Positions 6,001-9,000 of a stretch of DNA of 51,153 nucleotides are shown here, one piece after another. The first letter of the stretch is position 1. Each line of letters opens with the position of its first letter. Made by a program: the position numbers. This DNA comes from a virus (taxonomy: Duplodnaviria; Heunggongvirae; Uroviricota; Caudoviricetes): IMG/VR virus record IMGVR_UViG_2939521961_000005; one strand, written 5' to 3'.

Positions 6001-9000
6001 GCTGCCATTTTTATAACTTTCTCCTGGCCTTAGGATCACAGTAGCACCAACTGGGATACTCGGTGATCCTGATGGGTTATGCATTGTGTCATCAGGCATT
6101 GAAACGGCAAAATCACCTTCCTCGACATCAAAGAATGTGGTGATCCTATCGACATTTCCCATTGTTTTCTCTCCTTTTAAGATTAGGAAAGAAATCGCCT
6201 CACCCCACGAAAGGTAGGGGATCTTGGTGCCTGAGGTACTTTGTACAAAAGATAATTCAGGAGACGATACTCCATATAGGAGATAGGACTCAGTAGTTCC
6301 TAATGCCTGGGCTAACTTACTTAGAGCTTTGCTACCTGGTTCGTTTAGATCTTTCTCCCAGTACCCTATAGTAACCCCAGTCACGCCTGAAAGCTTACCC
6401 AGTTCTACTTGGGTCAGCCCCTTATCTTTTCTAAGTCTCTTAAGCCTGATGCCAAGGCTTTCCATCATTTTCTCCTGCAAATTGAATATAAATTATTTTA
6501 GATTGCATTGACCTAAAAAAAATTATCTTGTAATCTAAAAATACTTAGATTTAGGAGGTAAAATGCGAGTTGATGAACTTGTCCAGTTTTTTGGTTCTGT
6601 TCAGAGGGTTGCCGATTTTTATGGGATAACCCGCGAAGCTATTTACATGTGGCGTAAGCGTCCTGGTGAAATAGTTCCGAAGGGGAGGGCTGCGGAAGCT
6701 GCTGCATACTCCAAGGGGAAATTATCTTTGAACCCAGAACTTTACAAAAAGAAGGATACCACTCAGGGCGAAGGAAAGGGGGATTCATGAAAATCAAACA
6801 TGAGCACATCCGCATGGCGATCAATGCCTGGGCCTATCCGGACGGTGAGAAAGTTCCTGCAGCTGAAATAGCCCGGACTTATTTCGAGCTGGGGATGACG
6901 TTCCCGGAACTGTACGACGACAGCCATCCGGAAGCCCTGGCTCGTAATACCCAGAAAATTTTCCGTTGGCTGGATAAAGACACCCCTGATGCTGTTGAAA
7001 AAATTCAGGCTCTGTTACCGGCGATCGAAAAGGCAATGCCGCCTCTGCTGGTGGCCCGTATGCGCAGTCACAGCTCTGAATATTACCGTGAGATCGTCGA
7101 ACGGAGGGATCGGCTGGTGAAAGATGTGGATGATTTTGTCGCAGCGGCGATCGCCTGGGGCACCCTGACTAACAGTGGTGGTCAGCCTGGTAATGCTGTT
7201 GTCGTGCATTGACCAACAATATTCATGCCGGATTTATTCCGGATGTTCGAGGGTAAAGTTCGGTATCAGATGAGGTGAGTATGGCTAATGCCTGGCTCAG
7301 ATTGTGGCATGACATGCCAAATGATCCCAAATGGCGAACCATTGCCAGGGTCTCAGGACAGCCAATCGCAACAGTGATGGCGGTGTATATCCACCTTCTG
7401 GTGAGTGCGTCACGAAATGTCACGACATGTCACGGCGTGTCACTACGTGGTCACATTGATGTCACGACGGAAGATTTAGCAAGTGCGCTTGATGTGACGG
7501 AAGACGTGATTGATTCAATTTTGCATGCAATGCAGGGGCGAGTTCTGGATGGTGATCTTATTTCCGGATGGGAAAAACGCCAGGTGATGAAGGAGGATAA
7601 CGGTAATGTTTCGCAAACCGCAAAATCCCCGGCAGAGCGCAAGAGAGCGCAGCGGGAGCGGGAAAGACTGCGGAAGCAGAACACTGATTGTCACGATGAG
7701 TCACGACGCGTCACGCATATGTCACGACAAATCACGACAGATACAGATACAGATAAAGAATTAAACCCCACACATAACGCGCGCATGCGCGAGAGTGCTA
7801 CGACCGGTGAGTTGAATGACGCGTCGTTGCAGACAGCCGAACCTGAATACCTGGACGGCCTGAGCGAACCGATCGGGAAATTTCCGATGACTGGAGTCTG
7901 GCAACCGTCGCCGGATTTTCGACAGCGGGCAGCAGTGTGGGGTATGGCTCTGCCTGAGCCTGAGTTTACACCTGCTGAGCTTGCCGCATTCCGGGATTAC
8001 TGGATGGCGGAGGGGAAGGTTTTCACGCAGGTTCAGTGGGAGCAGAAATTTGCCCGCCACGTGCAGCACGTCAGGGCACAGGTAAAACCAGTCAGCAAGG
8101 GGGTAAGCCATGCAGCACCAGGTGGCACCGCATCACGGGCAGTTCAGGAAATCCGGGCTGCACGCGAACAGTGGGAACGTGAAAACGGATTTATCAGCAA
8201 CGGAAACGGCCTGGAAGCTGTGGGAGCTTATGGGGGAGGTGTATTCGAACCGCTGGACTCAGAAGAACGGGGCTGCGCCGTCGAAACTCTGGATTGCTCA
8301 GATTGGCGCGATGACTGAACAGCAAATCCGGCAGATCTGCCGTCGGTGCATGGACCGCTGCCGGGCGGGTGAAACGTGGCCTCCGGATCTGGCTGAGTTT
8401 GTGGCGTTGATTTCGGAGAGCGGGGCAAATCCATTTGGCCTGACGGTGGATGCCGTGATGGAGGAATACCGTCGCTGGAGGAATGAATCCTGGCGGTACG
8501 ACGGGAGTGATAAATACCCGTGGCCACAGCCGGTGCTGTACCACATTTGCCTCGAGATGCGTTCAAAGGGGATTGAGCGCCAGATGACCGAAGGGGAGTT
8601 AAAACGGCTTGTGGAAAGGCAGCTGACGAAATGGGCAAAGCATGTTGGTAATGGCCTCAGTGTTCCGCCAGTCCGGCGACAACTGGCAGCACCCAAACGC
8701 CCGCCAGGGCCAACGCCAATTGAATTGCTGAAACAGGAATATGAGCGCCGGAAGGCGGCCGGTTTTGTCTGAGTTGAGAAGTAATTTTTACCGGGAGGAA
8801 AATTTAATGGAAACCGTTTTTGACGCACTGAAAGCACTGAAAAAAGCCTCGTCGCACGAGATTGCAGCCCGTCTTGAAATCAGCCGTGACGATGCTGTTA
8901 CCGAACTCTGGAAGCTGAAGCGTCGTGGCGAAGCTGATAACAAGGGGTCGATGTGGTGGCTGACGAGTGAGGCAACTGAAGCGGCCCCAAAAACCACTGC

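Follow-up and report, generated by a model that had tools for sequence, protein, structure and literature searches.

Phased direct repeats in two arrays within the initiator gene of an Escherichia coli lambdoid prophage form a probable replication origin

The DNA analyzed in this study is a 51,153-nucleotide stretch, recorded in IMG/VR as IMGVR_UViG_2939521961_000005 and referred to below in its whole length as the window, which is a lambdoid prophage of Escherichia coli. Its early region has a replication initiator gene, within whose coding sequence there are two arrays of short direct repeats of the word GTCACG, the second of them followed at once by an AT-rich tract. We consider it likely that positions 7409-7766 are the replication origin of this prophage, located inside its own initiator gene, with the second array (array 2) and the AT-rich tract as the unwinding core and the first array (array 1) as an accessory element. 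A candidate origin had been predicted here from the sequence alone, and every part of that prediction that can be tested by sequence comparison held. In related loci the repeated word was found to change together in both arrays.

The six copies of array 1 start at 7409, 7419, 7429, 7439, 7450 and 7461 (steps of 10, 10, 10, 11 and 11 nt). In array 2, copies of GTCACG start at 7690, 7700, 7710 and 7721 and a variant copy, ATCACG, at 7731 (steps of 10, 10, 11 and 10 nt). All eleven copies are on the + strand, the gap between the two arrays is 223 bp, and both arrays together with the AT-rich tract are wholly within the open reading frame (ORF) of the initiator, 7281-8318. The original prediction of six and five GTCAC(G) repeats at about 10-bp spacing inside a replication gene, in two arrays separated by about 220 bp and in this respect unlike the single array of lambda, was thus accurate. 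Tandem Repeats Finder reported period-10 arrays at 7409-7454 and 7690-7727 as well as a period-6 array at 7737-7759. Exact matches to GTCACG number 34 on both strands of the window, 8 of them in the two arrays. In 100 first-order Markov simulations no more than three GTCAC fell within 65 nt, against the six seen here, and among all the 5-mers of the window equally strong clustering was seen for AAAAA and TTTTT only.

The AT-rich tract that had been noted after the second array proved to be the least stable DNA of the gene. The least stable 30-bp stretch starts at 7736, with a nearest-neighbor free energy of -33.6 against a gene mean of -44.3 (standard deviation 2.9, a difference of 3.7 standard deviations), and across the whole window it belongs to the lowest 0.7% in stability. 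The GC content of the tract is 35-37% and its + strand is strongly A-rich. The hexamer period of the tract encodes Asp-Thr/Asp-Lys repeats.

The repeats might have arisen incidentally from a peptide motif that is repeated or conserved and have no function as DNA sites, as the original prediction itself had cautioned, since both arrays are wholly in coding sequence and array 1 encodes a segment, NVTRGH.DVT, that is conserved as protein in many homologues. We find this barely credible. The period is 10-11 nt and the copy starts fill all three reading frames (2, 0, 1, 2, 1 and 0 in array 1, and 1, 2, 0, 2 and 0 in array 2), with the copies encoding different residues (S-R, V-T, C-H, G-H). Species-level loci with the same N-terminal domain were collected (38 in number), and wobble positions were analyzed in 20 of these homologues, from beta- and gamma-proteobacteria, in which the first 105 codons aligned gap-free. 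The wobble sites in the array-1 cores were invariant in all 20 species (sites 141, 144, 150, 153, 162 and 165) or in 19 of them (site 132), whereas those in the spacers (sites 135, 147, 156 and 168) had three to four different bases and entropies of 1.5-2.0 bits. The invariant core sites include both two-fold and four-fold degenerate positions, while neighboring degenerate sites were saturated. Codon bias cannot explain this invariance because the host gene copies range from visibly AT-rich (Entomomonas) to visibly GC-rich (Bordetella and Castellaniella). In addition, the same hexamer reappears 223 bp away in an unrelated and poorly conserved linker, where it changes in step with array 1. Codon repeats were rejected as the cause of the arrays on the basis of the three frames and the frozen core wobble sites, and the alignment indicates that the hexamers are selected as DNA, independently of coding.

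To place the arrays in a wider context we compared 44 loci, the window included. In 38 of the 44 the top 5-mer of the array-1 zone was also repeated in the array-2 zone, and within each of these 38 loci both arrays bear one identical word. The comparison with related phages that had been proposed for the candidate origin therefore showed the two-array layout to be no oddity of this prophage. The offsets of the arrays from the ATG are nearly fixed, at approximately +129 to +160 and +387 to +420, and the hosts include Escherichia, Shigella, Serratia, Rahnella, Pseudomonas, Aeromonas, Bordetella, Acidovorax, Chromobacterium and Ralstonia. At least 32 of the 43 related loci have a (GATAAA/GATACA)n tract after array 2. 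The module is carried by isolated phages (Escherichia phages Evi and Tritos, Pseudomonas phage phi1, Aeromonas phage pAEv1818 and Ralstonia phage Firinga) and therefore belongs to functional viruses. Phages and prophages with the N-terminal domain itself come from beta- and gamma-proteobacteria, apart from a few matches in alpha-proteobacteria and elsewhere.

Four classes of word were identified. GTCACG is the word of 28 loci, in every one of which array 2 was found; GAACGC is that of five loci, one an environmental phage genome; GTAACG is that of four, from Pantoea, Enterobacter, Marinobacter and Sphingomonas; and GCAACG is that of a single locus, Ralstonia phage Firinga. The N-terminal domain of Firinga is 35% identical to that of the window and its arrays are at +130 to +161 and +393 to +423. 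Phased direct repeats of one word that evolve in concert with the initiator, by which an iteron-type origin is recognized, are thus what these loci have.

A single inverted copy of the core (GTGAC on the + strand) is located 33 nt past the last direct copy of array 1, where it encodes Asp-Val-Thr in the turn of the helix-turn-helix. Most GTCACG-class loci have it at the same offset, the wobble base of the Val codon is G in 18 of the 20 aligned species, and the site reads GTTAC in a GTAACG-class locus (L032) and CGTTGC in Firinga, of the GCAACG class. With moderate confidence, we interpret these comparisons as indicating that the inverted copy is a conserved element that follows the word class in three classes.

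In one sub-clade with very similar N-terminal domains, represented by loci from Pantoea (L030), Erwinia (L031) and Enterobacter (L032), a mixture of GTCAC, GTAAC and GTGAC was observed at approximately +130 to +200 and +400 to +460, with some pentamers overlapping at 5-nt spacing (GTCACGTCACGTCAC). This mixture looks like either a recent switch of specificity or relaxed, GTNAC recognition.

The presumed reader of the repeats is the N-terminal domain of the initiator. The protein has a predicted winged helix at approximately residues 1-100 and a basic, low-complexity linker at approximately residues 100-165, and its C-terminal half contains a DnaT-like domain at approximately residues 201-267. 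An AlphaFold2 model of residues 1-134, built with 50 homologues (mean predicted local distance difference test score, pLDDT, of 76), has three helices followed by a loop (46-62), a helix-turn-helix (63-70 and 74-84) and a beta wing. The codons of array 1 specify the last part of helix 3 and this loop, which is where the model is least certain within the domain (low pLDDT at 49-53) and where homologues have insertions. The loop contains an Arg-Gly pair, invariant or nearly so, that is encoded by an iteron spacer.

The modeled winged helix is closest to the N-terminal domain of DnaD (DnaD-NTD) and to the RepA_N plasmid initiators. At the profile level there was weak similarity to Pfam Phage_rep_org_N (E=0.014, 15.8 bits against a gathering cut-off of 23.3 bits), which was the only such match, and PHROG matches of the initiator included "replisome organizer" (1e-4) and "DnaD-like helicase loader" (6.5e-8). 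Pfam Phage_rep_O gave no match to residues 1-160 even at E<=10 and Pfam RepA_N gave none to the N-terminal domain. Membership of the lambda O family was rejected based on the lack of a Phage_rep_O match; we tentatively place the domain with the DnaD/replisome-organizer/RepA_N winged helices. The description of the gene as O-like in the original prediction therefore stands for its position and architecture, and for its partner because a P-type loader follows it, but not for homology of the N-terminal domain to lambda O.

Based on these observations, we propose that the N-terminal winged helix recognizes a 6-7 bp core, (T)GTCACG(A), and that direct repeats about one helical turn apart would place the bound monomers head-to-tail on one face of the DNA. 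Array 2 and the adjoining A-rich tract would form the core origin, with the duplex opening in the tract, and the C-terminal half of the initiator together with the P-like loader would bring the host DnaB helicase, as in lambda. Array 1 and the inverted copy would most likely be the accessory part of one complex; with initiator on both arrays, the DNA between them would be looped or wrapped and the complex thereby stabilized. We infer the binding of the initiator, the start of unwinding within 7737-7766 and the role of array 1 from sequence comparison.

The repeats could alternatively be sites for a different host or phage protein that acts outside replication, for example in transcription control, packaging or partition, in which case the true origin would be elsewhere in the prophage. 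We regard this as very improbable, even though a further phased GTCACG pair is present in a structural gene of the window (26650-26665) and the assignment of the initiator as the binder comes from sequence. From Escherichia to Ralstonia the only constant gene partner of the repeats is the N-terminal domain that contains them, with the neighbors upstream and downstream differing; the motif classes switch between loci that have diverged N-terminal domains of the family; and the succession of iterons, AT-rich tract and loader gene is the canonical origin layout (PMC7466680).

Several points weigh against the proposed origin. The AT-rich tract is short (~30 bp) and its AT-richness is moderate. A link between motif class and N-terminal domain is also expected from plain co-inheritance, so that the initiator is identified as the binder by parsimony only. 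The literature searched, which did not reach older subscription-journal reviews, has no report of binding, unwinding or origin activity for this initiator family, nor are these repeats or an origin of the family described there. Array 1 is not indispensable to the family because six of the 44 loci with this N-terminal domain are without it; five of these keep repeats at the array-2 position, and the sixth, Microcystis phage Mwe-JY25, has none at either. Finally, the distance between the arrays varies (219-247 bp and more) by non-integral helical turns, based on which strict helical phasing between the two arrays was rejected and a rigidly phased loop is not favored.

Of all steps in the proposed mechanism, the role of array 1 is the least secure. 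Extra iteron sets outside plasmid origins are classically negative elements, and handcuffing occurs with the extra iterons of the P1 and F plasmids. It is less likely, though a serious alternative, that both arrays bind the initiator but that array 1 is a negative control element of this kind, acting by titration, by handcuffing (pairing with array 2 or with a sister copy), or as an intragenic roadblock that results in less transcription of the initiator, P and the downstream genes. A lytic phage would gain little from limiting its copy number, and no promoter-like element to be controlled was found between or around the arrays, but several features of array 1 fit such a role: it is 223 bp away from the array that adjoins the AT-rich tract and has no low-stability DNA of its own, it is early in the transcription unit, the inter-array distance is out of helical phase, and its absence from six loci, five of which retain repeats at the array-2 position, suits a regulatory accessory. 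However, in Stx (Shiga toxin) phages the iterons distal to the AT-rich tract act positively: two extra iterons in this position bind O weakly and yet are needed for replication (PMC7466680). An accessory positive role of array 1 in a single origin complex would be the most likely by analogy, and we favor it because the distal iterons of Stx phages are required and because the G38P initiator of phage SPP1 uses two sets of repeats.

The loop just before the helix-turn-helix of the presumed reader is itself encoded by array 1, and it may be speculated, although we think it improbable, that site and reader are in this way coupled in the same nucleotides. If the loop adds to DNA recognition or to oligomerization, a change in the iteron word would rewrite site and reader at once. 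Such a coupling could explain the concerted moves through at least four specificities (GTCACG, GTAACG, GCAACG and GAACGC), and it would provide replication "incompatibility groups" by which several lambdoid prophages could share an E. coli cell without cross-firing.

The limits of the replication module were indicated by phages that have other N-terminal domains. These matched only from positions 542-556 of the query, corresponding to 7741-7755 of the window, that is, from the AT-rich tract onward, and they include PPompW, pPE4 and a DUF1376-type E. coli prophage. Just upstream of the tract such phages have repeats of their own, ACACCCAAA in PPompW and TAAGGC-type in pPE4. The (CAGATA/GATAAA)n tract, the joint AACCCCACACATAACGCG and the GC-rich palindrome CGCGCATGCGCG are common to prophages with unrelated N-terminal domains, and tract and joint are at approximately 3005-3030 in locus L001, 3003-3050 in L002 (pPE4) and 1205-1245 in L008. 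The segment 7737-7795, comprising tract and joint, looks from these alignments like a recombination joint for the exchange of modules. Because phages with other N-terminal domains share only the sequence from the AT-rich tract on and have their own repeats, the comparison indicates that the N-terminal domain, both arrays and the AT-rich tract travel as one cassette.

In pPE4 the TAAGGC-type word was observed in two places, at 2463-2520 near the start of the gene and at 2938-2991 just before the AT-rich tract. The GTCACG family may consequently not be the only one with a layout of two clusters.

Among close relatives (88-94% identity), array 1 and approximately 100 nt around it are 100% invariant, and in array 2 the cores are kept while spacers and copy number vary. 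Array 1 of the window has two copies more than the common four-copy form, an addition of 10 + 11 = 21 nt that is in frame. In strain SCU-104 (L004, 582-1629; columns 458-467 of alignment A1) array 2 has one extra 10-nt copy and the gene is called "frameshifted" by RefSeq; slippage of the iterons is thus able to knock out the gene in which the presumed origin resides. Such changes in copy number are in keeping with slippage of iterons that have to be translated as well.

The iterons of lambda are units of approximately 19 bp with internal dyad symmetry, unlike the repeats described here, which have a 10-11 bp period and an asymmetric core of 6-7 bp. Further differences are that the N-terminal domain is no homologue of lambda O and that the copies are divided between two arrays with a gap of 223 bp, one array being in codons for the DNA-binding domain, whereas lambda has one array of four to six iterons. 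In lambda and the Stx phages this array is contiguous and within O (PMC7466680). The likeness to these origins is in the position of the repeats, mid-initiator at the boundary between an N-terminal half that determines specificity and a C-terminal half that interacts with the loader; in the presence of iterons, an AT-rich tract, a GC-rich palindrome and a P-type loader gene directly downstream; and in the exchange of the N-terminal half and the iterons as a cassette between lambdoid phages (PMC7466680).

In SPP1, a phage of Gram-positive bacteria, the replisome organizer G38P binds direct repeats beside an AT-rich unwinding element in its own gene 38 (oriL) and also a second, separate set (oriR), so that repeats within the gene of the initiator, adjoining an AT-rich element and accompanied by a second set, are common to both systems (PMC6316719). 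The second site of SPP1, however, is a complete origin approximately 13 kb away with an AT-rich element, whereas in the window the two sets share one gene with 223 bp between them and array 1 lacks an AT-rich tract. The RepA_N initiators of plasmids and satellites, such as RepA of pSK41 and pTZ2162 and the Vibrio PLE RepA, bind iterons at their origins through their N-terminal domains (PMC7145576). Their iterons are usually semi-palindromic around a poly-A tract (PMC7145576), in contrast to the short, asymmetric, phased direct repeats reported here. The present initiator differs from them also in having no Pfam RepA_N match and in having a lambda-P-type loader as its partner. In P1 (incC/incA), F, R6K and P4 (ori/crr) the initiator word occurs in two separated clusters, one at the unwinding region and the other auxiliary. 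The presence of one word in two clusters is a likeness to these plasmid iteron origins and P4, but their clusters flank the initiator gene or are kilobases away and are non-coding, whereas both arrays of the window are translated.

Iteron origins that are located in an initiator gene, beside an AT-rich tract and together with a P-type loader, are thus known already (PMC7466680). Distinctive features of the system described here are the modeled winged-helix N-terminal domain that is not of the O type, the very short, asymmetric, phased repeats, the location of one array in the codons of the DNA-binding domain and the family-wide concerted switching of the word. A paper on the Eru replication units of Stx phages discusses neither origins nor repeats, and the word "iterons" occurs in none of the Eru papers listed.

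Placing the origin in a 360-bp segment would make replication licensing of the prophage testable in Shiga toxin-producing strains, which have many lambdoid prophages. It would also provide a rule for annotating origins of the family, namely one word in two arrays at fixed offsets followed by a (GATAAA)n tract. The family further offers a natural series of at least four matched specificities of site and protein, under the double constraint of coding and binding, for the study of protein-DNA co-evolution. A second iteron set within the codons of the DNA-binding domain raises a mechanistic question of its own as to its role.

The 1.2-kb region 7200-8400 is 100% identical to the chromosome of E. 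coli strain E2865, where its counterpart is in a prophage inserted next to potC, and is approximately 99% identical to prophages of O157:H7 strains. The module is common in E. coli: at least 80% of this region is covered in 658 of 5426 complete genomes, O157:H7 included. The features of the region are listed in Table 1.

Table 1. Genes and proposed origin elements in the early region of the window.
Feature	Position	Strand	Description
LexA-family repressor	5821-6480	-	
Cro	6563-6790		
YdaT-family protein	6787-7212		
Replication initiator gene	7281-8318	+	345 residues; RefSeq start ATG 7281, stop 8318
Iteron array 1	7409-7466	+	Six direct GTCAC(G/T/A), 10-11 bp spacing; within codons for residues 43-62
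Inverted core copy	7494-7498	-	Single copy, GTGAC on + strand
Iteron array 2	7690-7736	+	GTCACG x4 and ATCACG, 10-11 bp spacing; linker-coding region
A-rich (ACAGAT/GATAAA)n tract	7737-7766	+	Least stable DNA of the gene; putative unwinding element
Conserved joint AACCCCACACATAACGCGCG	7767-7795		Mosaic junction; with GC-rich palindrome CGCGCATGCGCG (7780-7791)
Lambda-P-like helicase loader	8311-8772 (RefSeq start)	+	RefSeq label "replication protein P"
DUF1627 protein	After loader gene		In early-right region

RefSeq names the initiator "DnaT-like ssDNA-binding domain-containing protein", and the DnaT domain in its C-terminal half is the sole Pfam match to it; in PHROGs both halves fall in "replication initiation protein" families. 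The loader was identified by Pfam Phage_lambda_P (E=4e-16) and by PHROG 109, "P-like helicase loader" (211 bits). The PHROG 109 match starts at residue 20 of a long ORF that opens at 8110 and scores 211 bits there against 182 bits from the annotated start; homology of the loader reaches upstream of 8311 to at least 8167 in the same frame. Another PHROG begins at M41, which is ATG 8230, with GGAG 4 nt upstream. The true start of the loader is probably ATG 8230, upstream of the RefSeq start at 8311, as judged from these matches, and with this start P and the 3' end of the initiator gene would share at least 89 nt in different frames.

An Rfam search of 6400-8900 gave no structured-RNA match at E<=1. 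No internal promoter tied to the arrays was found, one weak promoter-like site at 8774 being outside the region, and terminator-like matches on the minus strand at 7766-7794 were rejected as merely the GC palindrome and the A tract.

Many of the initiator-family members in the database (P0001-P0120) come from short contigs and are "partial" proteins of 150-230 residues. It seems from this that breaks near the mosaic junction are frequent in draft assemblies, owing to a C-terminal half common to several prophages in one cell.

Elsewhere in the window GTCACG occurs as a phased pair just once, as TGTCACGGCCAGTCACG at 26650-26665 on the - strand, with the two copies 10 bp apart, antisense within a large structural ORF (25550-27211). 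By a rough, uncomputed estimate the odds of such a pair arising by chance are roughly 1-2%, and it could be either a chance occurrence or a weak secondary site for the initiator.

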